DNA of 64,000 nt from an uncultured Gammaproteobacteria bacterium (GTDB taxonomy: Bacteria > Patescibacteriota > Patescibacteriia > Buchananbacterales > UBA6539), in contig CAZHUO010000003.1 of assembly GCA_964535715.1 (NCBI GenBank), forward strand, positions 256 through 64,255. The letters are read 5' to 3'. This document shows positions 3,316 through 25,131 of the stretch, one piece after another. Within the stretch, counting starts at the first letter, position 1, and each line of letters begins with the position of its first letter. A program made the translations under genes and the position numbers. The notes under the pieces were generated by a model that saw only the letters and a program-made list of their open reading frames with translations, had not been told where the DNA came from and ran no database searches.

Positions 3316-3334
3316 TTAATTTCTAAATAAATAT

Positions 3335-3778: not shown

Positions 3779-3833
3779 TTTGACGGTACAGTCTATTTTT
3801 ATTAAAATAAAAGCACAATTAACAAATCAACAC

Positions 3834-3864
3834 AGCGCGCCATTTTTTGCGCGTTTTATTTTAA
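3834..3864 (+). terminator. Intrinsic terminator after the receiver
   Basis: GCGCGCC-atttttt-GCGCG hairpin followed by TTTTATTTT. Confidence 0.5.
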
Positions 3865-3958
3865 CAATTGACGGTTCGAGGAATAAAGAGTATATTAATA
3901 TGATGCTTTTTCCTGGTTTATTTTCTAGTATAATTGATTTAATTTTTAATAATTTACA

Positions 3959-5191
3959 ATGACTCAAGTGAATAAAAAAGGTAATGTTTTAATGGGTGCT
4001 CAATTTTGGGCGTACGGCCCGGCTGGCAAAGCGAATGCCATCGCCCATGAATTAAAAAATTTAGGCATCAGAGTGGATTTTGTTGGTGCCGAAACATCAT
4101 ACCAGCTGTGTAAAGCCTCTGGCCATTTTAATAATTTATATAATTTTAATTCCGGTCCACGTTTGGATAAATTCCCCAATTATCAAGTTGTTGTTTCGGT
4201 TATGGATCCATATCTTGCCTTATGGGCTTACAAGAGGAAACTTCCATTAATTTATGCAGATAGTATGTCATGGTTTTGGCGCTGGAAAGATATAAATTCT
4301 ACTTCTGTTAAAAATTTTTTAGTTCATGTTGAAGATATTGGTTTCAACGAGGGTTGTAAAATATTAGATGAGTTTCAGCCAGATCAACGTCAGCTTTTTG
4401 CCCATTTGATCTCTGATAAGATTTTGGGGCAAGGCAATCCTCAGGTCGTAAGTGAAACGAAAGATAAGGCTTCAAACGCTGGTTCAATGATTGATTTAAA
4501 CTATATTAAGAAGACAAACAGAGATACTTTGTTAATTTCTTTAAGTGGTGGCATCTCGCCAGCCACTGACCTTGAAGCGGCTTTGAAGTATACAAAATTA
4601 ATTATAGATTTATTAGAGAATAGACTTGAAAAGTGGCCTGGTGCTAAACGCTTTGTTATAACTGGTCATCCTTTAGTAATTTCTAAATTCAAAAATTATC
4701 CAAAGATTCTAAAACCGACGGCTCTTTCCCAACCTGATTTTTTGAAAGAATTAAATCGGGCAGTGGCCGTGTTAGTGCCATGCGGATTTACAACCATTTA
4801 CGAATCTTTAGCTTATGGTGCGCCCGTTGCTTTTCTGCCCGAGAATCATAATGGTCATGTTTATGAATATTTAACCATTACTAAGGGTATAGATGATCTA
4901 GGTAAAAAAGAAAAAGTTTTTCCGCATGCGTTATTTTGCATTAAGGACGCTGATTTAAATAAGATTAAACCGATTGAGGAATCAATGGATCTGATAAAGA
5001 ATTATACTAATCAATATTTTAATTCAGCTGATTTTAAAAATTATTATTTGAATAAAGTTGACTGGTGGCTTGATTATTTTAAAAATGCCAGGACGATTTA
5101 TGCCAATCAGAGAAAACAGATTTTGACAACCATCCCCGACTTTCGAGGAGCGGTTAGGGTAGCAAAGGCCGCTGCTAAAATTATTAAATAG
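3959..5191 (+). CDS. GT-B fold glycosyltransferase (GT1/GT28, MurG/UDP-glycosyltransferase-like)
   Basis: Gly-rich N-terminal acceptor-domain loop (GAQFWAYGPAGKANA). The C-terminal donor-domain pattern is ...GHP...PCGFTTIYESLAYGAPVAFLPENHNGHVYE. Confidence 0.55.
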   Translation: MTQVNKKGNVLMGAQFWAYGPAGKANAIAHELKNLGIRVDFVGAETSYQLCKASGHFNNLYNFNSGPRLDKFPNYQVVVSVMDPYLALWAYKRKLPLIYADSMSWFWRWKDINSTSVKNFLVHVEDIGFNEGCKILDEFQPDQRQLFAHLISDKILGQGNPQVVSETKDKASNAGSMIDLNYIKKTNRDTLLISLSGGISPATDLEAALKYTKLIIDLLENRLEKWPGAKRFVITGHPLVISKFKNYPKILKPTALSQPDFLKELNRAVAVLVPCGFTTIYESLAYGAPVAFLPENHNGHVYEYLTITKGIDDLGKKEKVFPHALFCIKDADLNKIKPIEESMDLIKNYTNQYFNSADFKNYYLNKVDWWLDYFKNARTIYANQRKQILTTIPDFRGAVRVAKAAAKIIK

Positions 5192-5192
5192 T

Positions 5193-6152
5193 ATGAAAAA
5201 AATATTATATTTAGGTACATCCCAGTTTTCCGAAATGATGAACACCGAAAGGTGGCAGCTTACTAACGGAATGATTAAGACCGAAAGCTTTATCTTTTTT
5301 GATCTAAAACAACGTCAAGAAAAAAATATAGATTTATACAAATTATGGGTCAAAAATAATAGACCCAGTTTTATTATACTGGAAGATTACGATTGGGCTC
5401 ATAAATTAGATTTGCCACTTGAATATATTAACGCGGACAAGGTTCCCGTTCCTGTTTTGGGTTTTATTGCAGATTATTGGTATGATCCGAAAGAGAAGCT
5501 GGAATATTATGTTAAAAATAATATTAAGGGTTTGATTGCGATTCACGAAGCAGCAAATCAGTATATCAATGAAAATTTTGGTCAACAGATCAAAAAGATA
5601 TTTAATATACCATTTTCCATTGATGGAAATGAATTTTCGGATAAACCCAGGCAAAAAGAATATGATATTTTATGTTCTGGCTTTATGGGAGATTTATATC
5701 CATTGCGCCAGAGAATCCGAGACATCTTAAAGCAGAATTCAAAAATTAATACTTATTTTTTAGAACATCCCGGTTACTGGAAAAAAAATGAGAAAGTTGG
5801 CTTACGGGGCAAGGATTATTATGCGGTTATGGAAAAGGCAAAGTTCGTCATCTCAAGTACTGGAATCTATAATATCAGCGCTAGAAAACATATAGAAATA
5901 GTAGCTTCTCGGGCAAAAATACTAGGTAATATTACAGGATTTGACGAGCATAAGATTTTTGAAAGTTTTACTTTGCCGCTGGATCGTAAAATGACCGACG
6001 AGCAAATTAACAGCTTAATTGAGGAGGGGGTTAAAAATTGGGGTTGGTCAAGTGAGAATGAGAAAAATAGGCAATTAGTTTTAAATATGCATGATCCTGC
6101 CCTTATAGCAAAATCTCTCACAGATAAATTAGAACAAGATGGTAATGTATGA
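5193..6152 (+). CDS. CgeB-like / glycosyltransferase-family-1-like protein (DUF3880-like)
   Basis: The pattern resembles spore-maturation CgeB-type GT1_2 domains (YDILCSGFMG...R...L, Y..ME.AKFVIS). The assignment is tentative. Confidence 0.35.
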   Translation: MKKILYLGTSQFSEMMNTERWQLTNGMIKTESFIFFDLKQRQEKNIDLYKLWVKNNRPSFIILEDYDWAHKLDLPLEYINADKVPVPVLGFIADYWYDPKEKLEYYVKNNIKGLIAIHEAANQYINENFGQQIKKIFNIPFSIDGNEFSDKPRQKEYDILCSGFMGDLYPLRQRIRDILKQNSKINTYFLEHPGYWKKNEKVGLRGKDYYAVMEKAKFVISSTGIYNISARKHIEIVASRAKILGNITGFDEHKIFESFTLPLDRKMTDEQINSLIEEGVKNWGWSSENEKNRQLVLNMHDPALIAKSLTDKLEQDGNV

Positions 6153-7798
6153 ATAAGCCAGATTTGAAAAAAATTAATGTTGTCATACTGGCTGCTGGTA
6201 AAGGAACCCGGATAAAAAAAGTAGCTTCTGGTACTCCAAAAGCTTTGCTTGAAATCGCCGGCATCCCAGCATTGGTTTTAATAATGAGAAGATTAATAAA
6301 GCAGGGGTTCAGGACATTTACCCTGGTTGTTAATAAGGATAATAAAAAGCAGATCGAAGATGTTGTTAAAAATGCTTTTGCCGGTGTCAACCTTAATTTG
6401 GAAGCCATCATTCAGCCTCAGTCTAAAGGCCCGGCTCACGCTTTTTTCTATGGCCTTAAAAAAGTTAATTTGGATAATGACACGTTGCTTTGCTTGTCGG
6501 ATACATTATTTGATGAAGATTTACCGGTTGGCTATGATTGGGTCGGTACCTCTTTGGCAAAAGGTGTCGGTAAATGGTGCTGGGTAGAAACAACAAATAA
6601 AAAAGTTATTAATTTTTTTGACAAAATCCAACCGCCAAAGCACGTTGAAGAGGTTTTGATTGGCTTGTATTATTTTAATAATTCAAAGTTTGTTTATGAT
6701 GAATTAGCTAAAATTATTAGAAGCAATTCTAAACGAGCCGAGGGGGAGTTTCAGCTTAGCCAGATACTCGATCTTTATAAAAGTAAGCATAATATAAAAT
6801 CTTTTATAGTTAATAGTTGGATTGATTGTGGAACCGAAGAAAATTATTTTAATGCACAAAAAATATATACGAATCATCGTCATTTTAACTCAATCATTAT
6901 CAAAAACGGCAATTCTAATTGTTGCATCGTCAAAAAAGGCAATCAAAATAAAATACAAAATGAAATAGATTGGTTCAATTTGGCTGTTAAGCAGAATAGA
7001 TTAATGGTTCCTAAGATTAGGAAGAACAGCAAGAATTCTTACAAAATGAATTTTATTAATGATCCTCTTTTATCATCTCTGTATTTATATAATCCAATTA
7101 ATATTAATGACTTTTTAAAGATAATAAGGAAGTTATACAGTTTCGCCGTTAAATATCTTTGGCGTGACGGTAAAAAATATAAAGATATTAATATAAAAAA
7201 TGATTGTCAGTTGATGTACGAGAATAAGCCGTTTGAGAGATTAATGGATTGGGAGATGTGGAGGACTTTTAAATCCATTCGGGCGATTAAAATTAATGGT
7301 AAGAATTATAGTAAACTTTATGATTTGTTGTCTAAAGCCTTGAAATTGTCCTCATTAAACAATCATAAGCCCGTGAAGAGCTTGATTCATGGTGATTTTC
7401 ATTTTGGCAATATTTTTTACAACAAAAGAAAACAATCTTTTGTATTCATTGATCCACGCGGTAGATTTGGAAATTCCAGCGGCATGGTAGGCGATATTTA
7501 TTATGATTTAGCCAAGTTGCGCCATTCATATCACGGAATGTATGATGCGATAGTTGAGGGGCTTTATGTTTTAGATAGAAAGTCAAAAGGTAATTTTGTT
7601 TTTAAAGTCGGTCCTGTCCGTAGCCAATATATAAAAAAGATTGATCAATTTATTTCGTCTTCGGGGTTTGATATCAGTGTGGTTAAATCTATAGAATTAG
7701 GAATTTTATTAAGCCTTATTCCATTTCATCAGGAGTCCCAAAATAATCAATTGGCATTTTTTCTGCAAGCAGTTATGTTGGCTCAAGAATTAGTTTAA
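6149..7798 (+). CDS. Bifunctional protein with an N-terminal sugar-phosphate nucleotidyltransferase and a C-terminal APH/choline-kinase-fold kinase (AmgK/MurU-like or LicA/LicC-like fusion)
   Basis: The NTP_transferase G-loop is VVILAAGKGTRIKK....PKALLEIAG. The C-terminal kinase motifs are LIHGDFHFGNIFY and FIDPRGRFG...GDIYYDLAKL (Brenner/APH catalytic loop plus a DFG-like motif). Confidence 0.7.
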   Translation: MNKPDLKKINVVILAAGKGTRIKKVASGTPKALLEIAGIPALVLIMRRLIKQGFRTFTLVVNKDNKKQIEDVVKNAFAGVNLNLEAIIQPQSKGPAHAFFYGLKKVNLDNDTLLCLSDTLFDEDLPVGYDWVGTSLAKGVGKWCWVETTNKKVINFFDKIQPPKHVEEVLIGLYYFNNSKFVYDELAKIIRSNSKRAEGEFQLSQILDLYKSKHNIKSFIVNSWIDCGTEENYFNAQKIYTNHRHFNSIIIKNGNSNCCIVKKGNQNKIQNEIDWFNLAVKQNRLMVPKIRKNSKNSYKMNFINDPLLSSLYLYNPININDFLKIIRKLYSFAVKYLWRDGKKYKDINIKNDCQLMYENKPFERLMDWEMWRTFKSIRAIKINGKNYSKLYDLLSKALKLSSLNNHKPVKSLIHGDFHFGNIFYNKRKQSFVFIDPRGRFGNSSGMVGDIYYDLAKLRHSYHGMYDAIVEGLYVLDRKSKGNFVFKVGPVRSQYIKKIDQFISSSGFDISVVKSIELGILLSLIPFHQESQNNQLAFFLQAVMLAQELV

Positions 7799-7805
7799 TA
7801 ATAAA

Positions 7806-8537
7806 ATGAAAAAAGGGGTAACAATTATTTCATCAACCGCACAAGATATTTTTGTTGATTCAGAAAATAAGGTTGTAAAAAAGAAAAAAGGCGGGCCAGG
7901 TTACTTTATCAGGCAAGCATTGGAAGACAGAAAGGTTCCTTTTAATAATATCAATAAGTGGGACACTAAGATAGAATTATATTTGACCAAGTCCGGAAAA
8001 CCAAACAATAAATTATTTAAGGGTAAGGTTGTAGGAGTAGTGCCTAAATTTAATTTGCCAATAAAACAGATGACGGAATATAGTATTGTTTCAACTATCG
8101 CTAATGAATGGAAATTAAGGGAAATAAAAAATTATAAAGGTAAGTTGTTTCTAGATATCCAGGGTTATGTTCGAGATCCGAAGAAATTTTCAGTTAAAAA
8201 ACAATGGCCTCAAATTTCTTCTTTGGTAGAATATATTTATTGTCTTAAGGGTACAAACCAAGAGGTTAAACTTTTACCTAAAAGTGTTATCAATATTGCT
8301 AAGAAAAAATTATTGATAATAACCGACGGTTCAAATAAAGTAAAGGTGTTCCATGATAATAAGAAGTTTGAATTCAGCATTGTTAAAGTGAACAACCTTT
8401 TCGATTACATTGGTGCGGGTGATACTTTTTTCGGCCATTTTGTTGCCGGCTTATACAAAGGATTTACTATGAATAATTCGGCTAAAATTGCCATTAATAA
8501 GACTAGAATTTTTTTAGAAAATAAATTAACTATTTAA
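7806..8537 (+). CDS. PfkB-family (ribokinase-like) sugar kinase, short form
   Basis: C-terminal GAGDTF anion-hole signature (DYIGAGDTFFGHFVAGL). N-terminal GG-like dinucleotide (KGGPGYF). Confidence 0.6.
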   Translation: MKKGVTIISSTAQDIFVDSENKVVKKKKGGPGYFIRQALEDRKVPFNNINKWDTKIELYLTKSGKPNNKLFKGKVVGVVPKFNLPIKQMTEYSIVSTIANEWKLREIKNYKGKLFLDIQGYVRDPKKFSVKKQWPQISSLVEYIYCLKGTNQEVKLLPKSVINIAKKKLLIITDGSNKVKVFHDNKKFEFSIVKVNNLFDYIGAGDTFFGHFVAGLYKGFTMNNSAKIAINKTRIFLENKLTI

Positions 8538-8549
8538 TTATCAAAAACT

Positions 8550-9203
8550 ATGAAACCATGGCAAGAAAATAGAAAAGAAACTAAGAAATTTTTTCAAAAA
8601 AAACAAAAAGAAGGTTTGTCATTAGGATCATCTCCCTGGACTACGCTAGCAGTTGGTAAGGAATTGCAACAATTAGTAATTGATGGCGTTATCAAGGAGG
8701 GAATGGTCGCTATGGACGTGGGCTGCGGAATTGGCGTAGAGGCAATGTATCTAGCCAAGCAGGGATTAAAAGTTACTGGTCTCGATTTTATACCCAAGAC
8801 TATTGAAACAGCCAAAGAAATGGCTAAGTTAGCTGAAGCGGATGTTGATTTAATCTCTGATGATTTTATCGATATGGATTTAAAAGAATACGAAGGCAAA
8901 TTTGATTTAGTTATTGATCAGGGTTGTTTTCACCATATTCCGGTAGAGGAAAGAATTAACTATGCTGAAAGAGTTTATTCTTTGTTGTCAGATGACGGGA
9001 TATTTTTTTTGCGGGGATTTTCTGATGAGATGTTGCCTTCACCAACTGGCGATGGCCCGATTAGACTGACTTCAGATGCTATTATTCATAGTTTTTATAA
9101 GTTGTTCTTTATTGAGAAACTTTATCGGTTTAGAAATATACCTTTGCCTAATGTGAATAAACCTCAAATTTTTTGGGCTTTTTTAGGTAAGAAGAGGTGT
9201 TAA
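8550..9203 (+). CDS. Class I SAM-dependent methyltransferase
   Basis: Motif I VAMDVGCGIGVEA. Motif post-I VTGLDFIP. Motif II LVIDQGCFHHI. Confidence 0.75.
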   Translation: MKPWQENRKETKKFFQKKQKEGLSLGSSPWTTLAVGKELQQLVIDGVIKEGMVAMDVGCGIGVEAMYLAKQGLKVTGLDFIPKTIETAKEMAKLAEADVDLISDDFIDMDLKEYEGKFDLVIDQGCFHHIPVEERINYAERVYSLLSDDGIFFLRGFSDEMLPSPTGDGPIRLTSDAIIHSFYKLFFIEKLYRFRNIPLPNVNKPQIFWAFLGKKRC

Positions 9204-9658
9204 AATATTTTATGCCAAAATCAAAGACTATAAAAACAAGATCAGGAAAAATTGTTCACTATTCAGTAGGAGCATTAATTAGAAAAAACGGCAAGTATCT
9301 TCTTGTTGATCGAAAAAAACCTCCGTTTGGCTTTGCTGGTATTGCCGGTCATATCGAAGTTAATGAAGATAAGGATATAGCCTTAAAACGTGAAGTAAAG
9401 GAGGAGAGTGGCTTGGATGTAAAAAAATTTAAACTACTTTTTAAAGAGAAGATTGATTGGAATTCGTGTAGTAAGGGTGTAAACAGTCACTTTTGGTATC
9501 TTTATAAATGTGAGGTCGTGGGCAAAGTAAAAGAGAATAAAATGGAGGTTAAATCTATTGGGTGGTATTCAATAAAAGATATTCAAAAATTAAAACTGGA
9601 GAAAGTCTGGGAATATTGGTTTAGGAAAATCAATGTTATAAAAATTAATTATGAATAA
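9197..9658 (+). CDS. NUDIX hydrolase
   Basis: Nudix box GHIEVNEDKDIALKREVKEESGL (GX5EX7REUXEEXGU). Confidence 0.8.
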   Translation: MLKYFMPKSKTIKTRSGKIVHYSVGALIRKNGKYLLVDRKKPPFGFAGIAGHIEVNEDKDIALKREVKEESGLDVKKFKLLFKEKIDWNSCSKGVNSHFWYLYKCEVVGKVKENKMEVKSIGWYSIKDIQKLKLEKVWEYWFRKINVIKINYE

Positions 9659-11078
9659 CAGAATTGTCTTAATATCATTGTATGATTTAGATTCCATAGC
9701 GATTCGAACCCTTCATTCTCTTTTAGAAAAAAATAAATTTGATGTATCTTCTATTTTTTTCGGTGAGACGGTTCATAATGTTGACATGCCTGTTTTGTCA
9801 GTAAGCCAAGTTAAAAGTTTGCTTAAACTTATAGAAGATGTTGATCCGGTTTTAGTCGGAATTAGTGTTAAATCTTTATTTTTCAACATAGCTAGCAAAT
9901 TAACTAATGAAATAAAGAAAAAATTGAATATAAAGGTTATATGGGGAGGTATTCATCCAACAATAATGCCAGATAATTGTCTTAAATTTTCAGATATGGT
10001 GTGTGTTGGAGAGGGGGAAGGATTGATATTGGATTTGATGAATAGATTATCGAGAGATAGGCCGATAGACGATATTAATAATTTATGGCTGAATATAGCA
10101 GGAAAAGTCATCAATAATAACTTACGGCCTTTAATCCAAAATTTAGATTCAATACCTTCGACGGATTTTTCTAACCATAAAAAGTATTTTATTAAGAATG
10201 ATGGCCATATTTATAATCCAAATCAGGTAAAGGAGAAATATTATTTTTGTCTTACAACTCGTGGCTGTCCGCTTAACTGCTCTTATTGCTATGGTAGCGT
10301 GCTGAGAAGGATTTATCACAATAAGGGTAATTATTTAAGAAGAAGAGGTGTAAATAATGTAATAGAGGAATTAGTGTCTGTAAAGAAGAATTTCAAGAAT
10401 TTAAAGTTTATATTTTTTACTGATGATGTATTTACTTTTGACATCGATTGGTTGTTTGACTTTTCGAAGAAATATAAGAAAAATATAAATATACCATTTC
10501 GTTGTTATTGTCACCCTAAAATGCTTAATGAAAAAATTTTAAAAATTCTAAAATATGCTGGAGTTGAAAAAATAAAAATTGGCATACAATCTGGATCTGA
10601 GGTAATAAGGCATGACTATCTGAAAAGGTATGATACCAATAAGGAGATAATAGTGGTTGCTAAGCTGTTAAAGAAATATAAAGTCAGTTGCCACTATGAT
10701 TTAATTGTTGATAATCCTTTAGAATCGGAAGAAGATAAGTTGGAAACCTTAAATTTATTGTTAGAATTGCCTCGACCATTTGAACTCTCTACCTTTATTT
10801 TAACTAATTTCCCCGGAACAGATCTTACAAAATTATTTGTAGATAAAGGAATAATTTATGAGGATGATGTAGAGGGTAGCGATAAAATAACTAGCAAATG
10901 GAGGCCAGAATTGGATTTTTCTAGAGGAAATGACTATGTATTTTGGAACACTTTGTATCATTTGGTTAAAAAAAATTATATACCTAAAAAATTTATAATT
11001 AAATTAAGTAAAAATTATTTTTTCAAAAATAATCCAAGGCCAGTTGCTACTTTGATGAAGCATATATTAAAAAATTAA
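9651..11078 (+). CDS. B12-binding-domain radical SAM protein (class B radical SAM)
   Basis: N-terminal Rossmann-like B12-binding region. CPLNCSYC (CxxxCxxC) radical SAM cluster motif at about residue 206. Confidence 0.7.
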   Translation: MNNRIVLISLYDLDSIAIRTLHSLLEKNKFDVSSIFFGETVHNVDMPVLSVSQVKSLLKLIEDVDPVLVGISVKSLFFNIASKLTNEIKKKLNIKVIWGGIHPTIMPDNCLKFSDMVCVGEGEGLILDLMNRLSRDRPIDDINNLWLNIAGKVINNNLRPLIQNLDSIPSTDFSNHKKYFIKNDGHIYNPNQVKEKYYFCLTTRGCPLNCSYCYGSVLRRIYHNKGNYLRRRGVNNVIEELVSVKKNFKNLKFIFFTDDVFTFDIDWLFDFSKKYKKNINIPFRCYCHPKMLNEKILKILKYAGVEKIKIGIQSGSEVIRHDYLKRYDTNKEIIVVAKLLKKYKVSCHYDLIVDNPLESEEDKLETLNLLLELPRPFELSTFILTNFPGTDLTKLFVDKGIIYEDDVEGSDKITSKWRPELDFSRGNDYVFWNTLYHLVKKNYIPKKFIIKLSKNYFFKNNPRPVATLMKHILKN

Positions 11079-11096
11079 TTATATAAGAAAGTATTT

Positions 11097-11540
11097 ATGA
11101 AAATAACAATTTGTGGCAGCATTTCTTTCTTTGACGAAATGAATGAAATTAAGTCAAAGCTAGAAAAAATGGGACATAAAGTAAAATGTCCTCTGTATGA
11201 AATTAAAAACCATAACGGTGAGAAGATATCTGATCGAGAGTATTACGAGATTAGAAAGAAATCAACTCACCGTAAAAAATGGGTTTGGGAACAGAAAGGA
11301 GAGGCAATTAAGGAGCATTTTCGTAAGGTTATGTGGTCTGATATTATTCTAGTTGTTAATCATGACAAGGGTGATATTAAGGGATACATAGGTCCGAATA
11401 CTTTAATGGAAATGGGATTAGCTTTTTTCAAAAATAAAAAAATATTTTTGTATAATAAAATTCCAAACATTCCTTTGCGCGAAGAAGTATTAGGCCTAAA
11501 GCCTATTGTAATTGATAAAAATCTTAAAATGATTCAGTAG
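11097..11540 (+). CDS. Nucleoside 2-deoxyribosyltransferase-like (flavodoxin-like fold) small protein
   Basis: N-terminal MKITICGS. C-terminal GPNTLMEMGLAFF with a candidate Glu nucleophile, as in the NDT/PnuC-associated family. The assignment is tentative. Confidence 0.3.
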   Translation: MKITICGSISFFDEMNEIKSKLEKMGHKVKCPLYEIKNHNGEKISDREYYEIRKKSTHRKKWVWEQKGEAIKEHFRKVMWSDIILVVNHDKGDIKGYIGPNTLMEMGLAFFKNKKIFLYNKIPNIPLREEVLGLKPIVIDKNLKMIQ

Positions 11541-11576
11541 CTTTACTTAAGTGGCATTTTCAGTTATAATATTTTT

Positions 11577-12608
11577 ATGTTAAACGAAATCGAAAAATTA
11601 AAAGAGTCATTTAACCAGGAAATTGATGCTATTTCTAATATTGACATGCTAGATAAGCTAGAGGTTGATTATTTGGGCAGGAAATCCGGTAAGTTGAATA
11701 ATATATTACGTGGGCTTAAAGACTTATCAGAAGATGACCGTAAGAAAATTGGTTCTTTGGCTAATCAGTTAAGAAAAGAAATTGAAGGAAGAATTGTATC
11801 TAAACGGAAAGAGTTGTCTCACAGTAAGTCTAGCGTAGAGTTTTTAGATGTTACTCTACCAGGGACTAAGTTACCGGAAGGGCATCTGCATTTAGTAACC
11901 CAGGCGATAAGGGAAATAACCCACATATTTGAAAGGATAGGTTTCACTCGGGTTAAATACCCGGAAGTTGAGTGGGATTATTATGCTTTTGAAGCTTTGA
12001 ATATGCCACCTGATCATCCGGCTCGTGATGAATGGGAGACTTTTTTTATTGATAAAGATCCGGTAGGCCCTAAAGGTAAAAGAGTTTTAACCCCTCACAC
12101 TTCTTCCGGCCAGGTTAGAGAGATGGAAAGAGGAAAATTGCCGATACGAATGATTAATATTTCTAAGTGTTATAGGCGACAGGCTGATGTTTCCCATTTA
12201 GCGATGTTTCATCAGTTTGAAGGACTATTAATTGATGAGCATGTAACTATTGCAAATTTAAAAGGAACCCTTGAATATTTTTTCAAAAATTATTATGGTC
12301 CAGACAGGCAATATCGTTTAAGGCCTTTTCATTTCAGATTTACTGAGCCGAGTTTTGAAATTGATGTTTCTTGTGATCTCTGCAAAGGCAAGGGATGCAA
12401 GATGTGTAAAGCTGGCTGGCTTGAACTTGGTGGCGCCGGGATGGTTCATCCTAATGTTTTGAAAGCTGGAAAAATTGACCCCAATAAATATTCTGGCTTT
12501 GCTTTTGGCTGGGGCGTTGAAAGAGTATTTTTAATGAAGCCGGGATTGAATATCCCTGATATTAGAATGCTGTATAATAATGATTTGAGATTTTTGCAGC
12601 AATTTTAA
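11577..12608 (+). CDS. pheS: Phenylalanine--tRNA ligase alpha subunit
   Basis: Class II motifs: TSSGQVR, FHQFEGLLID, GWLELGGAGMVHPNVL and GFAFGWGVERV. It carries a 4-Cys insertion (CDLCKGKGCKMCK). No pheT follows. Confidence 0.9.
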   Translation: MLNEIEKLKESFNQEIDAISNIDMLDKLEVDYLGRKSGKLNNILRGLKDLSEDDRKKIGSLANQLRKEIEGRIVSKRKELSHSKSSVEFLDVTLPGTKLPEGHLHLVTQAIREITHIFERIGFTRVKYPEVEWDYYAFEALNMPPDHPARDEWETFFIDKDPVGPKGKRVLTPHTSSGQVREMERGKLPIRMINISKCYRRQADVSHLAMFHQFEGLLIDEHVTIANLKGTLEYFFKNYYGPDRQYRLRPFHFRFTEPSFEIDVSCDLCKGKGCKMCKAGWLELGGAGMVHPNVLKAGKIDPNKYSGFAFGWGVERVFLMKPGLNIPDIRMLYNNDLRFLQQF

Positions 12609-12623
12609 CTTAATAGTTTCAAT

Positions 12624-12663
12624 AATAAAAAAATGACTACCGCCGATAGTATAAACGGTAGTC
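12624..12663 (-). terminator. Minus-strand intrinsic terminator for the PheRS-like gene
   Basis: GACTACCG...CGGTAGTC hairpin followed by T7 on the minus strand. Confidence 0.6.
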
Positions 12664-12671
12664 GTTTGCAT

Positions 12672-13796
12672 TTACGAAAGGTAGCCGTGAGTGCCACTTT
12701 GGTTTACGCCCAGGTAGACCCGGTTGCGTAACTCATTGGCTTCCTCTTGGAGCAATGATCTCTCGTGAGACCTGAGGACAATTCTTGCCAGGATATTCTT
12801 TTGACCTGGCTTTATCCCGAGGCGTTGGATTGCCTGCGGAGGCAGATCGTCATACGCCGTTTCCGACAAGATGGTTACTTCTTCCAATATCTCTACCTTG
12901 TCGTCCATAGCATCTCTTATCGCCTCGCAGATGTCTTCCTCGGTGCATTCGTTAGCCACCGAAAATGACATGTCCTGTCGAACGGGAGGATACTTTGAGA
13001 CTGGCTGGTAGTGATCGAGATTGGCCATCTGACGCTTGATTCTTGGATCTTCCGATCGGAGAATACGAATGTCGTCGATGCCCTTGATAATCATCACCAG
13101 TCGATCCAATCCCATACCCATCGCCAGCCCGGAATATTCCTCTGGGTTTAATCCGGCGTCGTTCAGGACCTCAGGATGAGCTTCGCCACATTCTAGGACT
13201 TCCAGCCACTCGCCTTTAACGAGAATCTCCACCTCTAGACCGTTGATAGTGTAGGGATGTTTCACCTCGTTCGCCCGATATTCACAACCAGGCACGACAA
13301 GTGAGATTACGGTCTCGATCAGAGAAATCAGTGCCTGACGTTCAAGTCGAGGTTCACCTTTCCTGACTCGCCAGATGTCCAGCTGATGCGGTTCGCCACA
13401 ATGGGTCTTGTTGACAACGTCACGGCGATAGCATATCCCCGGACAAATAACGAGATAGTCATCGACACCTCTTTCCCTTGCCTTCTGTAGAACGTCGGGG
13501 ATCATCGCTGAAGTGTGCGTCCTTAAGACTGTGTCATGGGACACATATCTCGTGTAGATTGAAGACCTGCCCGTATTGTCTTTAGGGAAACGCAGCCTGT
13601 CGAAATTGTTGGCCACCGTGGTTATTGGATTGGTTCTCACCACTTCTGGCGTTGGCCAATCCGCAAGCTCGATGAAACCGGTTACCAGTTTCTGAACAAC
13701 AAGGTTGATGGCGTGAATACCATTTTTTGGATCGGAAAGATCCGGGATCGCTAGAGTTTCCCTTAGTCTTCTCTCGGTCATCACTTCTATTCTCAT
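12672..13796 (-). CDS. Monomeric (mitochondrial-type) PheRS-like protein with a PheS class II catalytic core fused to a C-terminal FDX-ACB anticodon-binding-like domain. It is GC-rich. The start is probably at the internal Met preceded by AGGAGG; the ORF track extends it to 13841.
   Basis: Class II motifs LRTHTS, ICPGICYRRD, WLEVLECGEAHPEVL and YSGLAMGMGLDRL. The C-terminal ~100 aa resemble the FDX-ACB domain of PheT and mitochondrial PheRS. The coding GC is about 50%. Confidence 0.65.
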   Translation of the reverse strand: MRIEVMTERRLRETLAIPDLSDPKNGIHAINLVVQKLVTGFIELADWPTPEVVRTNPITTVANNFDRLRFPKDNTGRSSIYTRYVSHDTVLRTHTSAMIPDVLQKARERGVDDYLVICPGICYRRDVVNKTHCGEPHQLDIWRVRKGEPRLERQALISLIETVISLVVPGCEYRANEVKHPYTINGLEVEILVKGEWLEVLECGEAHPEVLNDAGLNPEEYSGLAMGMGLDRLVMIIKGIDDIRILRSEDPRIKRQMANLDHYQPVSKYPPVRQDMSFSVANECTEEDICEAIRDAMDDKVEILEEVTILSETAYDDLPPQAIQRLGIKPGQKNILARIVLRSHERSLLQEEANELRNRVYLGVNQSGTHGYLS

Positions 13797-13866
13797 TGTA
13801 TTCACCTCCTTTCTCTGTAAGGTTTGAGTTTCAAAGGTCATTATTTCCTAACTAGGAAATCATTTT

Positions 13867-13895
13867 ATATTATTACTATTTGGCTTTAATGTCAA
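13867..13895 (-). promoter_or_regulatory. Sigma70-like promoter (TTGACA-17-TAATAT on the minus strand), with a TTCCTA-AC-TAGGAA palindrome at 13845-13858 between promoter and RBS
   Basis: Read directly on the minus strand. The promoter region is AT-rich like the host, in contrast to the GC-rich coding sequence. Confidence 0.4.
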
Positions 13896-13922
13896 GGTAA
13901 AATTTGTTATACTTAAGTTACT

Positions 13923-14339
13923 ATGGAAATCCGTCAAGCTAAAACTAAAAAAGATTTTATCTACGTTGCTTCTTTGTTTAACCCGAAAAACAATGAATAT
14001 ATTTGGCCGAAAACTCAAACCGCTAAGCAAGTTAAATAAAATTGTAGTGAGAACAAACGCTATTATATTTTATTAGTTAAGAATAAACCAGTTGGCTGGT
14101 TTAACATTCGTTTGTCCGACAGTAAAGAAGCAACCATTGGAATAATTATTGACTATCCCTACCGAGGTCAAGGTTTTGGTAAACAAGCCATAGCGTTGAT
14201 TAAAAAGGAAGCCAAGAAGTTGGGAATGAAAAAGTTAAGATTGGAAGTTTTTGTTGACAATAAACCGGCCGTCAGCCTCTACAAAAAATCAGATTTTAAA
14301 ACAACTGCGAAGGTATTGGTAATGGAAAACAAGCTTTAA
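13923..14339 (+). pseudogene. GNAT N-acetyltransferase interrupted by one in-frame TAA at 14037-14039
   Basis: N-terminal 38 codons (MEIRQAKTKKDFIYVASLFN...), then TAA, then the same frame continues through ...YILLVKNKPVGWFNIRL...RGQGFGKQAIALIKKEAKKLGMKKLRLEVFVDN (GNAT motif A). Confidence 0.6.
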
Positions 14340-17360: not shown

Positions 17361-18377
17361 ATGAATAACATTCCCTATATAAAAATTACTGCCAAAGATA
17401 ATTATGACCTTGGCTTTAAATTGGGAAAAAGATTGCATGGCAATATAAAAGATCGTATAACGGCAAACAAACGCCTTTATAAAAAAATGGGGGCAAAGAG
17501 TTTTTCTAAGTTGATTGAAATGTCTTTAAAATTTTTGCCGGCAGTAGAAGAGAATTTTCCGCATTTTTTATCTGAAGTCAAGGGTTTAAGTTCAGGATCC
17601 AAGGTTAAGTTTGAGGATCTAATGGTCTTAATATGCGAGGAAGAGGTGCTGGGACTAAAAATACCAAAGTGCACCAATGTAGCCGTTAAAAACAGCAATG
17701 AAGTTTTGATTGGACATAACGAGGACTGGCTTCATGCATATAAAAATAACGGACTTTATATTTTAAATTGCCGAATAAAAAACCGTCATTCCCTAAGCTT
17801 GAATTATATGGGAACTTTAGCCGGTTCCAGCTGCGGTTTAAACGACAGCGGTTTGTGCTTTACCGCCAATTCGTTAAGCCCAACCAGATTCCGCTACGGC
17901 GTCCCGATAAAATTTCAGTTCCGGGCGATTTTGGATTGCAAGACCGTCAAACAAGCAATTTATTCGGATATTAAAGAAAGCAGCATCTGCGGCAATACCA
18001 TTTATGGCTGGAGAAATTCACGAATTTTGGATGTTGAAGACCATTTCGGCCATCATGATTTTTTTCAAAGCGAAAAATTTTTGATTCATACAAACCATCC
18101 GTTACAAAAAGAAGACAGAAACAGAATAAACACAAAAAAAGAGTCAATAGACAGATATAATAGGGCGCTGGAAATATTAAATCAGGTAAAGAAATATGAT
18201 TTGCCGCTGCTGAAGAAAATATTGGTTGATCATGAGGCCGGAATTTGCAGTCATCGCGAAAAAAATACTTTTTGGGGCTCTACTATTGCGTCCGTAATTA
18301 TGAATCCGAAAAAAAAATGGATGGAAGTTTGCTGGTCTAATCCTTGCAAGAACGAATACTTAAGGCATTATCTTTAA
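17361..18377 (+). CDS. Peptidase C45 / acyl-CoA:6-APA acyltransferase-like Ntn hydrolase
   Basis: The central GHNEDW motif and Cys-containing blocks are typical of the C45/AAT family. Confidence 0.5.
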   Translation: MNNIPYIKITAKDNYDLGFKLGKRLHGNIKDRITANKRLYKKMGAKSFSKLIEMSLKFLPAVEENFPHFLSEVKGLSSGSKVKFEDLMVLICEEEVLGLKIPKCTNVAVKNSNEVLIGHNEDWLHAYKNNGLYILNCRIKNRHSLSLNYMGTLAGSSCGLNDSGLCFTANSLSPTRFRYGVPIKFQFRAILDCKTVKQAIYSDIKESSICGNTIYGWRNSRILDVEDHFGHHDFFQSEKFLIHTNHPLQKEDRNRINTKKESIDRYNRALEILNQVKKYDLPLLKKILVDHEAGICSHREKNTFWGSTIASVIMNPKKKWMEVCWSNPCKNEYLRHYL

Positions 18378-18435
18378 ATATTTTTAAATTAATATATCAA
18401 ATTTATTTGTTTTGGCTCAAATTGAGTTTTTTTTG

Positions 18436-18464
18436 TTGACTTTTTTGATTATTTATCAGATAAT
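18436..18464 (+). promoter_or_regulatory. Sigma70-like promoter TTGACT-17-GATAAT upstream of the ATP-grasp cluster
   Basis: Read directly; about 55 nt upstream of the ATG at 18520. Confidence 0.45.
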
Positions 18465-18519
18465 TAATAATGTTGCCATTATTTTTTTGGCCAAATAAAT
18501 TTAAGATTAAAAGATAAAA

Positions 18520-19884
18520 ATGAATAATTTTTTAAATATATTCAGTCAACAAAATCGAAACGGTTTCAGTTTTGATGTTTTGGGTAAAAAATATTTTGTC
18601 ACTTATCCGCCAAAAGTATTTTCAGCTTTAAGTTATGAATCTAGACAGGTTCTGCTTGAAAATTTTGTTTATTGCCGCACCAAGCCGCTTTGTTTAATAA
18701 CAAAAAAGAATTTATTCTACCAAAATCAAAAACCGATATTAAAAAATTTTGTCGATTATGGTATACTTAAAGACTTACCCAGGGTGGCATTTTTTGAAAA
18801 ATCGCCGTTAAAGAAATTTTCCGATTCGTTTAAAACAAAAAAAAATTCAGAATATTTTGTAAAAAAAGAGAAAAAAATTCAGAATATGGATTGCTGGGAA
18901 TCTGATGACAAAAGGGCGATTTTGGCATTATCTTTTGGCAAAGACAGCTTGCTTTCGTACGGCATTGCCAAAGAACTCGGACTTAAATTGGATTTGGTTT
19001 ATGTAGCGGATAAGAATTCTTTGTCGGATCGGGAAGAAGTTTTTAAAAAGCGGATTATAAAAGACTTTGTAAAAAATGAAAAGGTAAAGATAAATTATCT
19101 GTTTGACAGCGCCGACAGCATTTTTTTGGAAAATATTTTTGAAAAAAAAATTGAGGAATTTGAAAATACCAACGGAATGCTGGCATTCTCCCTGGAACTA
19201 ATTCCTTTTTCCAAATATTTCAAAGCAAAATATCTGATTTTCGGCAATGAGGCGAATTTTTCCGATTATTTTGAAAAGGATGGCAAAAAAGCCTATCCGT
19301 CATTTGATCAAAGTGTTTTTTATTCCGAAAAAGAAAATCAGTATCTTGATAAGATGACAAAAGGAAGCGTTTCGGCCGTAAGTTTAGTTGAACCGATATA
19401 CAATATTGTTGAAATGTCCATATTGGTTAACCGCTACCAAAATCTTTTGTCTTATATGATGTCTTGCTCGCCTAAAAAAAATGATCCGGAAAAATGGTGT
19501 TACCATTGTCCAATGTGTGCAAAAGCTTTTTTATATCTTGTTGCTGTTGGAGGAAAACCTTGCCAAATCGGCTTTAATAAAGATTTTTTTCAAATTAAAT
19601 TTAAAAATTTATATCCGCTATTTAATGTTGGAGTTAACCGGGCTTATGAAAAGCCTTTAGCCGTCAGAGACGAACAACTTTTAGCTTTTCTTCTTACTTA
19701 TCGGCGCGGCATTAAAGGAGAGTTAATTAACTTATTCGCTAAAAAGTATTTAAAAGAAGCTGAAAAACGGGAAGTAGGCTTGAGAAAAAAGTTTTTAAGT
19801 ATAAATAAAATTGTAACAATTCCGGCTGAGATAAAAAACAACGTAATTAATATTTACAAGAAAGAAATAAAAAAAATAATATGA
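18520..19884 (+). CDS. PP-loop ATP pyrophosphatase-like protein (MJ0570/Dph6-like alpha-ANH domain) with a C-terminal Cys cluster
   Basis: AILALSFGKDSLLSYGIAKELG is an SGGKDS-type PP-loop variant. The C-terminal cluster is CSPKK...WCYHCPMCAKA. Confidence 0.5.
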   Translation: MNNFLNIFSQQNRNGFSFDVLGKKYFVTYPPKVFSALSYESRQVLLENFVYCRTKPLCLITKKNLFYQNQKPILKNFVDYGILKDLPRVAFFEKSPLKKFSDSFKTKKNSEYFVKKEKKIQNMDCWESDDKRAILALSFGKDSLLSYGIAKELGLKLDLVYVADKNSLSDREEVFKKRIIKDFVKNEKVKINYLFDSADSIFLENIFEKKIEEFENTNGMLAFSLELIPFSKYFKAKYLIFGNEANFSDYFEKDGKKAYPSFDQSVFYSEKENQYLDKMTKGSVSAVSLVEPIYNIVEMSILVNRYQNLLSYMMSCSPKKNDPEKWCYHCPMCAKAFLYLVAVGGKPCQIGFNKDFFQIKFKNLYPLFNVGVNRAYEKPLAVRDEQLLAFLLTYRRGIKGELINLFAKKYLKEAEKREVGLRKKFLSINKIVTIPAEIKNNVINIYKKEIKKII

Positions 19885-22304
19885 AAGTAGAAAACAGGCT
19901 TGAAGGAGGGGTAATTTTATTGGTTAACACCGGTTCAATCAAAAAACGTTTTATTTTGCAGAAGCTTAAAAAAATGGGATTGATTTTGGTTTGTTTGAAT
20001 AAAGAAAAAAATTGGGCCCAGTCTTATATTGATTATTGGATTTTAGCCGATAATGCAAATCATAGTGAATCAATTGCCGCGGTTAAGGAATTTATTTTAA
20101 ATAACCCGAATATAAAAATTGGCGGAGCGTTGACTTTTTGGGAAGATGATGTGCTTTTAACATCTAAAATAATAGATAAGCTGAATTTTATCGGCACACC
20201 TTATAATGTCGCCAAAAAAATAAGAAATAAATTTTTATTCAGGGATTTTTGTGAAAAAAACGGTTTGCCCGCTCCAAAGCATTCTTTGATTAAATCGGCA
20301 AACGACATTGAGAATTTATCCGATAAATTAAGTTTTCCTTTGGTTATTAAGCCGGTCTTTGGCGCAAGTAGCGCGTATGTCATAAAAGTTGATAACAAAG
20401 AAGAATTGGCAAATACTTACAGTTACATTAAAAAGAATATATCAACAAACATAGAAAGTTCCTTAAGCGATGGTTTGGAAATATTCATTGAAGAATATAT
20501 AGTGGGCGACGAGGTTGATATCGATATAATACTGCAAAACGGAAAAATTAAATTTTATTCAATATCTGACAATTATCAGACGAAGGAGCCGTTCTTTGTT
20601 GAAACCGGACAATCAATTCCCTCGGGCCTTTCCGACAAAGTTAAAAGTGATCTTGTTGATGTTGCTGAAGAAATTTTGGAAAAACTCGGTGTTCAAAATG
20701 GGGTTATTCATTTTGAGTCGAAATCAACTCCGACCGGACCGGTGCCGATTGAGATTAATTTAAGAATGGGCGGCGATGAAGTTCATTCTTTCGTCAAAGG
20801 CGCTTGGGGCGTTGATTTGATTGAAAATGCCGCTAAAATTGCTTTGGGAATATATATACCAAAAATTCAAAAACCAAGTACGCCCAAAAAATATATTACC
20901 GGAGTTTATTTTTTGCCGGAATATTCGGGCATTGTGTCAAAGCTTAATTTTAATAATGAGTTAACCAAAAAAAGTTATTTAGAAGAAGTTCATTTTTTTA
21001 AAAAAATTGGCGATCCGGTTTTAGTTCCGCCAGAAGGTTATGAATATTTGGGCTGGATTACGGTATCCGGTTTTAGCATGCTTGATGCCCAAGACAATCT
21101 TAAGGAGGCGTTAAAACATATTGACTTCAAAATTGCAAAGTTTGCTCCGGAATCATCAATCGGAAAGACCTCAAGAAAAAATAGTTTTTCTCATGCCTCA
21201 TTAAATACGAATTTGTTGATTCATGCGGCTAAAATTGAAAAATTAAGAAAAATCACTCCAAAAGAGCAAAGAAGCTTGCATATTGGCATTGCCTGTAATA
21301 TTTTTGACGACGGTGACGTCGCGATTGAAAATGAATTAATGACCATAGGAAAAAATATTGAAGAAACCCTAAAGGAGCGAGGCTATAAAATTACATTTTT
21401 TAATTTTAACGATATTAATAATGTTTTTCAGCAATTGAAATCAAGTGATGTTGATTTGGTTTTTAATGTTTGTGAAAGAATAAATAATTCAAGTTTGTTA
21501 GAGCCTCATGCCGCATCGCTTCTTGATATTTTGCAAATTCCTTATACCGGATCAAATCCTTCGACGCTAAGCCTGTGTATTGATAAATTAAGAGTAAAAA
21601 AACTTTTAACTCATCACAAAATTCCCACTCCTCGCTGGGATTACGCTTACGCGATGGATGAAGATATTGATGAGAGCCTCCAATATCCTTTGATTGTTAA
21701 GCCGGCAAATACCGATAATTCCATCGGCGTAACAAATGAATCGGTTGTGACAAATAAGGAAGATTTGCAGAAGCAGTTAAAAAAAGTAATTGTTGAAATC
21801 GGAAGTCCGGCTTTAATTGAAGAATATATTGAAGGCGATGAATATGACGTTTCAATTGTCGGAAGCGAGGATGACGACTTAAGAGTATTGCCTCTTTCTC
21901 GTTCAATTTTTTCCAATATGTCGCAAGGCAGCTGGCATATTTATACCCACGAAATGAAATTCTCAGATAAAACAATCGATCAATTCGGGGTGTTGGTTCA
22001 GCGGCCGCCGAAAAATATCAGCAAGCGCTTAAGTTCGCTTCTGACTGAAATTGCCCTTGATACTTACAATATTTTAGACTGTCACGACTATGGACGAGTT
22101 GAAATTAGGGTTGATAAGTATGACAATCCGTATGTTTTAGAATTAAATCCGAATCCATCCATTAATGTCGGAGACTGCCTGCCGGAAGTCGCCAAGCTGA
22201 CCGGAATGGATTATGGTGATTTTTTGGAAGACATTATCAATATGGCAATAAGGCGATACCGCAATCGTCCGCCTTATTACCATCTACAAACTACGCCTAT
22301 TTAA
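19881..22304 (+). CDS. Tandem double ATP-grasp ligase (two ATP-grasp modules; the second is D-Ala-D-Ala-ligase-like)
   Basis: Module 1 has LVIKPVFGASSAYVIKVDNKEEL and EEYIVGDEVDIDI. Module 2 has LIVKPANTDNSIGVTNESV, EEYIEGDEYDVSIV and LELNPNPS. Its start overlaps the upstream stop by 4 nt. Confidence 0.7.
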   Translation: MKVENRLEGGVILLVNTGSIKKRFILQKLKKMGLILVCLNKEKNWAQSYIDYWILADNANHSESIAAVKEFILNNPNIKIGGALTFWEDDVLLTSKIIDKLNFIGTPYNVAKKIRNKFLFRDFCEKNGLPAPKHSLIKSANDIENLSDKLSFPLVIKPVFGASSAYVIKVDNKEELANTYSYIKKNISTNIESSLSDGLEIFIEEYIVGDEVDIDIILQNGKIKFYSISDNYQTKEPFFVETGQSIPSGLSDKVKSDLVDVAEEILEKLGVQNGVIHFESKSTPTGPVPIEINLRMGGDEVHSFVKGAWGVDLIENAAKIALGIYIPKIQKPSTPKKYITGVYFLPEYSGIVSKLNFNNELTKKSYLEEVHFFKKIGDPVLVPPEGYEYLGWITVSGFSMLDAQDNLKEALKHIDFKIAKFAPESSIGKTSRKNSFSHASLNTNLLIHAAKIEKLRKITPKEQRSLHIGIACNIFDDGDVAIENELMTIGKNIEETLKERGYKITFFNFNDINNVFQQLKSSDVDLVFNVCERINNSSLLEPHAASLLDILQIPYTGSNPSTLSLCIDKLRVKKLLTHHKIPTPRWDYAYAMDEDIDESLQYPLIVKPANTDNSIGVTNESVVTNKEDLQKQLKKVIVEIGSPALIEEYIEGDEYDVSIVGSEDDDLRVLPLSRSIFSNMSQGSWHIYTHEMKFSDKTIDQFGVLVQRPPKNISKRLSSLLTEIALDTYNILDCHDYGRVEIRVDKYDNPYVLELNPNPSINVGDCLPEVAKLTGMDYGDFLEDIINMAIRRYRNRPPYYHLQTTPI

Positions 22305-22308
22305 ATTT

Positions 22309-23649: not shown

Positions 23650-23668
23650 ATCTTATTTTGAATAAGTA

Positions 23669-25003: not shown

Positions 25004-25107
25004 GATTTTTTTGGTTAAACATAAAATATAAAATAAATGTTAAACTTAAATGTTTTATGTTGTATGTTTAACGCTATGTGATAAAAATATTGCCGCAGAC
25101 AGGACAA

Positions 25108-25131
25108 TTCCCTGTTTTTTATTATTTCAAT
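25108..25131 (+). terminator. Intrinsic terminator after the decarboxylase
   Basis: ACAGG-acaattc-CCTGT hairpin followed by TTTTTT. Confidence 0.5.

Follow-up and report, generated by a model that had tools for sequence, protein, structure and literature searches.

Why would a bacterium that already carries a canonical pheS gene keep, tail to tail with it, a second and GC-rich gene that resembles the monomeric phenylalanyl-tRNA synthetase (PheRS) of mitochondria? The question is raised by a 64,000-nt stretch of contig CAZHUO010000003.1 (assembly GCA_964535715.1, positions 256 to 64,255 of the forward strand), called the window here, from an uncultured bacterium placed by GTDB in the patescibacterial order Buchananbacterales. 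An earlier note, made from the letters of the window, had offered three readings of the gene: horizontal acquisition of a stand-alone PheRS that perhaps displaces or complements PheT, a paralog recruited to a non-canonical role, or a chimeric assembly. Our analysis favors the paralog, and both PheT displacement and chimeric assembly fall away. The gene is assigned to the SrmL family, and we consider it probable, with considerable room for doubt, that SrmL is a mobile auxiliary tRNA-directed ligase that works beside the housekeeping PheRS and is not a replacement for PheT.

Family assignment and architecture

The minus-strand open reading frame (ORF) that contains the gene spans 12672-13841 (389 aa). 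The better start is the ATG at 13796, as the earlier note had chosen, because a ribosome-binding site read directly from the letters, AAAGGAGGTG at 13813-13803, sits 6 nt upstream of it on the same strand; the ACAGA-AAAGGAG motif of this site also precedes SrmL in other patescibacterial loci. The resulting coding sequence (12672-13796, minus strand) encodes 374 aa, and its description draws on NCBIfam, Pfam, AlphaFold, Foldseek, and the GC profile.

Against NCBIfam model NF051887, "PheS-related mystery ligase SrmL," the protein scored 455.1 bits (cutoff, 300) over profile positions 2-348 of 349. It fell below the cutoffs of both PheRS models, with 159.4 versus 258.35 bits for TIGR00469 (pheS_mito) and 118.6 versus 237.45 bits for TIGR00468 (pheS), and no match to PF02912 (Phe_tRNA-synt_N) was found. 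These scores place the window protein in the SrmL family instead of with the mitochondrial-type PheRS for which it had first been taken. SrmL is a named but uncharacterised family, and the window copy is one of thousands of SrmL genes.

What did hold in the first description was the architecture, PheS class II motifs followed by a C-terminal FDX-ACB-like domain, as in monomeric organellar PheRS. Pfam and the predicted structure agree on a PheS-type class II catalytic core at residues ~20-257 (tRNA-synt_2d, 132 bits) and an FDX-ACB-like domain at residues ~265-374, the latter at 34 bits against a cutoff of 31.1 that is barely exceeded. The AlphaFold model (pLDDT, 91.3; pTM, 0.83) was matched by Foldseek most closely to the solved structure of human mitochondrial PheRS (mtPheRS; 3CMQ), across both domains (TM, 0.73; 26% identity; E = 1.7e-30; ~380 columns). 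PheS alpha subunits matched the model over the core only. A sequence search of the PDB gave the same ranking, with human mtPheRS best (E = 1.9e-28), and the window SrmL is 25% identical to the window's own PheS. As expected of SrmL, a single chain links the PheS-type class II core to a ferredoxin fold at the C terminus and lacks the N-terminal domain of PheS; the Foldseek match extends to the pheS_mito trait of a core fused in one chain to a ferredoxin-fold domain of anticodon-binding type. In a profile comparison, the C-terminal domain gave weak matches (E = 1e-4 to 1e-3), largely confined to the first strand, with B8 of PheT and the anticodon-binding domain of mtPheRS.

SrmL can be set beside two known enzymes. 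Like human mtPheRS (FARS2; 3CMQ, 3TUP), it joins a class IIc core to a ferredoxin-fold C-terminal domain in a single chain, but it is ~30-40 residues shorter and is not the sole PheRS of its compartment. With bacterial PheS, the alpha subunit of the (alpha-beta)2 enzyme, it shares a homologous catalytic core with motifs 1-3, but it has no N-terminal coiled-coil, its pocket is altered, and it bears its own FDX-ACB-like domain, which in bacteria is part of PheT. Compared with family NF051887 itself nothing essential differs; the window copy has an Asn at position 129 and is without the small upstream ORF described below.

Distribution and phylogeny

Approximately 3,500 proteins match the window SrmL at E <= 1e-5. 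The top 120 matches are 54-69% identical, and those with a named source are patescibacterial or carry labels such as "bacterium." A strict-motif scan, one genome per species, returned 177 relatives, among them Nostocales, Micromonosporaceae, Polyangiaceae, Myxococcus, Rhizobium tropici, and Longimicrobiaceae. Every homologue tested against NF051887 exceeded the cutoff; the nine scored 305-498 bits and comprised eight from Patescibacteria, Rhizobium, cyanobacteria, Gemmatimonadota, and Actinomycetota plus a third paralogue from locus L017. SrmL is present in two or three paralogous copies, within 10 kb of one another, in each of loci L012, L016, L017, and L019; every copy exceeds the cutoff, and in L019 two copies flank a fold-I pyridoxal phosphate (PLP) decarboxylase and an oxidoreductase gene.

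In a neighbor-joining tree, SrmL is monophyletic with its phyla in separate clades, and the window protein is nested in the patescibacterial clade as sister to P0002 and P0003. The nearest outgroup is a monomeric PheRS with a canonical pocket, represented by a 380-aa patescibacterial protein (L009:17952-19094, minus strand; L103:10001-11143; L105:9123-10265). This protein is like SrmL in its two-domain single chain, its HQxD motif, and the Tyr of FPYT, but unlike SrmL it keeps the canonical Phe residues (FHQ, FPYT) and has a strong FDX-ACB match (91 bits). It scores just under both the SrmL and the pheS_mito cutoffs. More than 120 protein clusters of it, 78-90% identical, occur across Patescibacteria (Wolfebacteria, Pacebacteria), and the NCBI records that name them call it hypothetical; its neighbors in L103 are housekeeping genes (gatCA, gyrB, secE-nusG-L11). 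The 380-aa protein is probably the real housekeeping PheRS of those lineages, and SrmL would be a faster-evolving accessory copy. A bacterial monomeric PheRS of this kind bears on the origin of the mitochondrial enzyme.

Integrity of the assembly and horizontal acquisition

The gene stands out in composition, as had been noticed at the outset (~50% GC). Its GC is 0.50 versus 0.364 in the remaining window, and its GC at third codon positions (GC3) is 0.548 versus a median of 0.34 (standard deviation, 0.056; 52 other ORFs), giving z = 3.8 and rank 2 of 53. In a 100-nt profile, GC of 0.48-0.55 is confined to ~12650-13750 with 0.25-0.35 on either side, and at finer scale the GC-rich stretch coincides with the coding sequence. 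The compositionally foreign segment is the SrmL coding sequence with at most ~50 nt upstream, directly behind the pheS terminator.

Boundaries this sharp, matching a coding sequence, are what a chimeric join or a binning error with DNA from a GC-richer organism would produce. Five Logan assemblies from five SRA runs, however, are 100% identical to the window, and all span both junctions; four end at 14031, reaching back to 11270 at most, and the fifth runs from 12310 to 13876. The hairpin of the pheS terminator also runs seamlessly into the SrmL stop codon. Because five independent assemblies reproduce both junctions at 100% identity, chimerism is excluded, and an artefact of any kind is scarcely credible.

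Horizontal acquisition, which had also been proposed, is borne out by the GC3 outlier, by absence of the gene in close relatives, by a boundary at the stop codon, and by the nesting in the tree. PheS homologues in related metagenome-assembled genomes are 90%, 86%, and 81% identical to the window PheS. Neither L085 (GCA_028688055.1; PheS 90% identical) nor L088 and L089 (86%) has SrmL at this locus, and the closest homologue of the window SrmL is 69% identical, versus 90% for the host PheS. Nucleotide homology between the window and L085 is limited to 11536-12674, a segment that takes in the terminator hairpin and reaches no further than the SrmL stop codon. An insertion boundary can be defined on the pheS side only, the region downstream of pheS being rearranged in all relatives. 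Nothing convincing was found at the island when flanking direct repeats, att sites, and insertion sequence (IS) elements were looked for, and there is no integrase or transposase among the ORFs neighboring the window SrmL. Taken together, the comparisons indicate that the window SrmL was horizontally acquired and inserted right behind the pheS terminator. The donor would have been another patescibacterium, since the nearest homologues are SrmL genes of other Patescibacteria. Among 21 patescibacterial loci, the GC3 of SrmL is an outlier (z > 2) in 7 and one of the top three in 13; an anomaly that recurs in this way is in keeping with repeated transfer among Patescibacteria. SrmL composition matches its surroundings in cyanobacteria and high-GC phyla. 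The window copy is thus no assembly error; it records the recent passage of a gene from one patescibacterium to another, inserted cleanly behind a terminator.

pheS without pheT

The remaining part of the original proposal was that the newcomer displaces or complements PheT. Canonical pheS (11577-12608, plus strand; alpha subunit, 343 aa) converges on SrmL across a 63-bp gap; it scores 262 bits on TIGR00468 against a cutoff of 237 and carries the Pfam domains Phe_tRNA-synt_N and tRNA-synt_2d. No pheT domains were found in the window ORFs scanned (every ORF of at least 400 aa plus most of the shorter SrmL neighbors), so the observation that started this line of thought was sound: a canonical pheS convergent on a GC-rich gene, with pheT missing. 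Its interpretation changes when relatives are considered. In L085, pheS is followed by MazG, NUDIX, and methyltransferase genes, and in L088 and L089 by trpB and trpA. In L086 and L087 (Buchananbacteria; PheS 73% identical), which also lack SrmL at the locus, pheS is followed by one small gene and then pheT. Because the SrmL-less L085 and L088/L089 also have no pheT adjoining pheS, the separation of the two genes is independent of SrmL; the pheS of the window lineage lost its pheT neighbor before, and independently of, the SrmL insertion. The association of SrmL with missing pheT is coincidental, and in the patescibacterium L092 a complete pheS-pheT lies 6 kb from SrmL. The window copy is consequently no sign of PheT replacement.

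The active site

To compare catalytic residues, we aligned 66 SrmL sequences from six phyla (Patescibacteria, cyanobacteria, Actinomycetota, Myxococcota, Gemmatimonadota, and Alphaproteobacteria) with the window PheS and a patescibacterial monomeric PheRS as references. The signature residues come from this alignment and are not a published definition, and the roles of PheRS pocket residues are those described in the literature on the Thermus thermophilus and human mitochondrial enzymes. Residues shared with PheRS and invariant or nearly so are R124 and R125 (motif 2), R232 (motif 3), H137, Q138, T183, A225, and G227, and the motif 2 loop YRRDxxDxxH is common to SrmL, mtPheRS, and the patescibacterial monomeric enzyme. 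Around this machinery the pocket is rebuilt. SrmL has P136 in place of the Phe ahead of HQ, a residue that in T. thermophilus PheRS stacks on the adenine; H180 in place of the first Phe of the FPF motif (FPF to HPY); and E202 in place of a Gly of the GxG loop, all three invariant in the 66 sequences. R83 and Y81, which replace residues of the DTF(F/W) segment, are family specific. Each residue of the signature E135-P136-H-Q-x-D140-x-W142, H180-P-Y-T, E202, and R83 occurs in the window protein and is kept by at least 95% of the 66 members, and the window copy carries the family motifs PGICYRRD, GEPHQxDxW, HPYT, LECG, and GxGLDR. A canonical Phe/ATP pocket (FPF, Phe before HQ, GxG loop) is absent from it. 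Set against human mtPheRS (26% identity), the changes read YFPFT to KHPYT, IFHQLE to EPHQLD, GCGVM to ECGEA, and GWAFG to GLAMG.

The invariance of the arginines of motifs 2 and 3 and of the motif 2 loop leads us to infer that SrmL forms adenylates as an active class II enzyme, with a substrate pocket that has been remodelled on a PheRS-like floor. The lost adenine-stacking Phe and the N129 of the window copy, at an otherwise-Asp position, might raise the suspicion that SrmL is a pseudo-synthetase that has lost catalysis and serves structure or regulation, in the way that HisZ serves HisG. We regard this as very improbable: the arginines and the HQ pair are invariant throughout the 66 sequences and six phyla, and there is no conserved partner protein to regulate.

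Genomic context in other bacteria

All-against-all clustering of neighbors at 79 loci revealed no protein partner conserved across phyla, only lineage-specific synteny. Cyanobacterial SrmL occupies a fixed syntenic position with varying upstream genes. In Patescibacteria, SrmL is usually monocistronic or is preceded by a conserved ORF of 82-109 aa, which has its own ribosome-binding site and overlaps the SrmL start codon in at least 10 loci (e.g., L009:9735-10004, L090:163-426, L092:9735-10004, and L099:6318-6647). The small ORF had no Pfam or NCBIfam match; it is judged to be protein coding because its substitutions fall mostly at third codon positions. A hidden Markov model built from six copies did not find it in the window, where the last ~45 nt before the ribosome-binding site may be a remnant of it, in an alignment too short to be sure.

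Several gene sets recur convergent with patescibacterial SrmL. One comprises a divergent lysyl-tRNA synthetase (LysRS)-like gene, two dCTP-deaminase-like genes, a methyltransferase, a LysA-like decarboxylase, and an S66 carboxypeptidase; others are radical S-adenosylmethionine (SAM)/SPASM and amidohydrolase, nucleosidase, and phosphoribosyltransferase (PRTase) genes; a true class I LysRS with two radical SAM genes; the pheS-pheT operon of L092, extended by four radical SAM genes; and a fold-I PLP decarboxylase bracketed by a second SrmL paralogue. These sets are suggestive but inconsistent, and none applies to the window. The recurring LysRS neighbor is class I in L098, class II in L091 and in a phage island, and divergent in the dCTP-deaminase-like set; either functional coupling or insertion beside conserved genes may account for it.

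Carriage by plasmids and phages

SrmL also travels on mobile replicons. A full-length copy, annotated as hypothetical, lies among IS elements on a 308-kb Azotobacter plasmid, and an intact copy, likewise annotated as hypothetical, lies directly downstream of the chloramphenicol exporter gene cmx on Glutamicibacter plasmid pGnB68 (L094:6326-9107). On Corynebacterium diphtheriae plasmid FRC0402_p2 (L096:7236-8651), erm(X) and tet(65) flank a remnant that has lost its 5' end, and an IS6-like transposase gene adjoins the truncation. The actinobacterial plasmid copies are thus embedded among antibiotic-resistance genes.

Phages carry homologues as well, namely one with a 635-kb genome and three represented by large IMG/VR viral contigs (508, 181, and 145 kb). 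On the 508-kb contig (L100), the SrmL gene (10001-11101) lies 9 nt downstream of a short histidyl-tRNA synthetase (HisRS)-like gene (9357-9992, 211 aa), within an island (L100:1-21086) that holds 28 tRNA genes in 21 kb, including two for Phe, four for Lys, five for Ser, and two for His, as well as genes for a class II LysRS (3247-4455) and a seryl-tRNA synthetase (7151-8422). One predicted tRNA of the island has a four-base anticodon, GGAA. On another phage contig a transfer-messenger RNA gene lies 4 kb from SrmL. This island of tRNA and aminoacyl-tRNA synthetase (aaRS) genes is the best evidence here that SrmL may act on tRNA.

Proposed function and its rivals

In the reading that we favor, SrmL would form an acyl-adenylate from an amino-acid-like substrate, which could be phenylalanine held in the remodelled pocket or a close aromatic analogue, and would transfer the activated substrate onto a tRNA held by the FDX-ACB-like domain, serving as a mobile auxiliary alongside the housekeeping PheRS. 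Because no protein partner is conserved across phyla, the acceptor would have to be something present in all host cells. SrmL coexists with pheS in the window, with pheS-pheT in L092, and with a canonical-pocket monomeric PheRS 7 kb away in L009, which argues against it as a sole PheRS, and its occurrence in Nostocales, Actinomycetota, Myxococcota, Rhizobium, and Gemmatimonadota was likewise counted toward an auxiliary role. Accessory or mobile aaRS genes and paralogues with new acceptors are well known, among them the plasmid-borne resistant isoleucyl-tRNA synthetase MupA, EpmA/GenX, GluQRS, and the amino acid:carrier-protein ligases. SrmL resembles them in being an extra copy of an aaRS fold that sits on plasmids and phages, beside a housekeeping enzyme, with a sporadic distribution. 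It differs from EpmA and GluQRS in keeping an appended domain of RNA-binding type.

Several observations weigh against this proposal. The C-terminal domain is diverged, its FDX-ACB match drops below the Pfam threshold in one patescibacterial subclade, and it is no more than a candidate for anticodon recognition. Since the pocket is unlike that of every characterised PheRS, a phenylalanine substrate is not assured, and without the Phe that stacks on adenine even the nucleotide or the reaction chemistry could be different. Residue N129 of the window copy is Asp in 65 of the 66 members. No dedicated tRNA was found near SrmL in 60 bacterial loci and the window, nor did Rfam return a T-box or other riboswitch in the window and 14 loci from five phyla. 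The patescibacterial neighbors (the small ORF, radical SAM, PLP decarboxylase, and PP-loop genes) fit a small-molecule or peptide pathway just as well, and a literature search found no paper on the SrmL family.

The most direct rival is that SrmL is a self-sufficient monomeric PheRS that makes Phe-tRNAPhe, either replacing or backing up the alpha2beta2 enzyme without PheT or acting as an inhibitor-insensitive spare, much like the resistant aaRS genes known from plasmids. The whole-chain structural match to human mtPheRS, the PheRS-like T183 and A225 of the pocket floor, and the two retained catalytic arginines all suit such an enzyme, as do the failure to find pheT in the window ORFs scanned and the two tRNA-Phe genes of the phage island, which lie beside paired tRNA and aaRS genes for Lys, Ser, and His; a spare enzyme would also be at home beside cmx or between erm(X) and tet(65). 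SrmL nevertheless stays below the cutoffs of the two PheRS equivalog models and is curated by NCBI as a family of its own, with no function assigned. All 66 sequences share changes at the first residue of FPF, at the Phe that stacks on adenine, and in the GxG loop, and a canonical PheRS coexists wherever the neighborhood is visible. Relatives without SrmL likewise have no pheT adjoining pheS, and the 90% conservation of PheS between relatives argues for a functioning alpha2beta2 enzyme. On balance, we find a plain monomeric PheRS unlikely.

It is also possible that the ligase loads an amino acid or other carboxylate onto something other than a tRNA 3' end, such as a small protein or peptide (the 82-109 aa ORF being a candidate), a metabolite, or a modified nucleoside. 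Other aaRS paralogues do ligate to non-tRNA acceptors. The small ORF that overlaps the SrmL start in at least 10 patescibacterial loci, the recurring radical SAM/SPASM, PLP decarboxylase (two folds), PP-loop ATPase, S66 carboxypeptidase, and nucleosidase/PRTase neighbors, and the diverged C-terminal domain would all be in keeping with this. Such neighbors are absent, however, from the window, cyanobacteria, Actinomycetota, plasmids, and phages, where SrmL stands alone; most of them are convergent with SrmL and hence not co-transcribed, and the LysRS-like, LysA-like, and LdcA-like ones could belong to a housekeeping lysine-salvage operon. The phage copy, moreover, lies within a tRNA/aaRS island. 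We therefore rate a non-tRNA acceptor as improbable, if not negligibly so.

A bolder form of the tRNA-directed proposal is that SrmL represents a widespread mobile, self-sufficient, single-chain aaRS of bacteria, plasmids, and giant phages with a specificity unlike that of housekeeping PheRS. We offer it tentatively and would not expect it to hold. It comes in two possible versions: a drug- or analogue-insensitive spare PheRS, or an enzyme that charges tRNA with a non-canonical aromatic amino acid. If true, SrmL and the 380-aa PheRS together would show that the monomeric design called "mitochondrial" arose long ago in bacteria and has at least two lineages that differ in function. Should SrmL turn out to be an alternative PheRS or to charge a tRNA non-canonically, this would bear on resistance to aaRS inhibitors as well as on the origin of the mitochondrial design. 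The retained adenylation machinery, the invariant remodelled pocket, the lack of a universal partner, the carriage by plasmids and phages, and the tRNA/aaRS island around one phage copy make the question of substrate and tRNA experimentally addressable.

Flanking signals and neighboring genes

Three signals had been described around the gene. A sigma-70-like promoter, TTGACA-17-TAATAT (13867-13895, minus strand; 10 of 12 matches), is indeed present in AT-rich DNA outside the island, but promoter-like matches in the region number 4 versus 3.0 expected by chance in shuffles, so the sequence match alone is not significant, and we assign this putative promoter by its position only. The palindrome exists and is longer than had been stated: an inverted repeat at 13840-13863 with 11-nt arms (13840-13850 and 13853-13863), a 2-nt spacer, and 10 of 11 positions complementary. 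It lies between the -10 element and the ribosome-binding site, at the AT/GC boundary, and no counterpart was found in related loci. The operator role first proposed for it is not supported. The terminator had been taken for SrmL's own, with host-like composition. Its predicted fold consists of a hairpin at 12635-12663 and, on the minus strand, a T-run at 12627-12633, with a 10-bp stem followed by U7 (-14.1 kcal/mol; z = -3.0). The hairpin is kept downstream of pheS in L085, which is without SrmL, and for this reason the intrinsic terminator at 12627-12663 is best read as belonging to the pheS flank and as common to the two convergent genes. The window yielded no tRNA and no Rfam match.

Among the neighbors of the window SrmL are a B12-radical SAM gene, NUDIX genes, a methyltransferase, a GNAT pseudogene, an S51 peptidase, and a Mur ligase. 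A PADLOC scan for anti-phage defence had no match for SrmL and matched only the generic methyltransferase and NUDIX neighbors. The GNAT acetyltransferase gene (13923-14339, plus strand) is divergent from SrmL and shows in translation an in-frame TAA at 14037-14039, with the GNAT domain after the stop. Because the four independent Logan contigs that end at 14031 all do so just ahead of this stop, a strain polymorphism there is suggested. In the window lineage, the DNA around pheS seems to be a hot spot of variation; in L085, the region upstream of pheS (6628-9607) holds a terminase, a ParB-methylase, and a SMODS/CBASS-type nucleotidyltransferase, which look prophage-like and defence-like. In L009, the 23S rRNA gene (1662-6023, minus strand) spans 4.36 kb versus a 2.9-kb model and has LAGLIDADG-like ORFs inside it at 2683-3147 and 3481-3996; it probably carries introns.

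Elsewhere in the window, the ORF at 37-906 (plus strand), which is open at the window start, is as GC rich as had been claimed (GC, 0.51; GC3, 0.58) and is the sole ORF above SrmL in GC3. It has a weak Rossmann/epimerase match alone, with no similarity to the epimerase beside SrmL in L092 or to any fetched locus, and may be a second foreign gene. An 850-aa ORF at 34461-37013 (plus strand), without a Pfam or PADLOC match, lies in a second GC-elevated stretch (~45% GC, 35-37 kb). A co-directional run of genes at 17361-26947 (plus strand) resembles a small-peptide pathway and encodes an AAT-family N-terminal nucleophile hydrolase, a 454-aa protein of unknown function, a double ATP-grasp ligase (807 aa), another ATP-grasp ligase, a LysA-like PLP decarboxylase, and an ABC exporter. 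The decarboxylase of this run is 40-46% identical to the decarboxylase that adjoins SrmL in other Patescibacteria.

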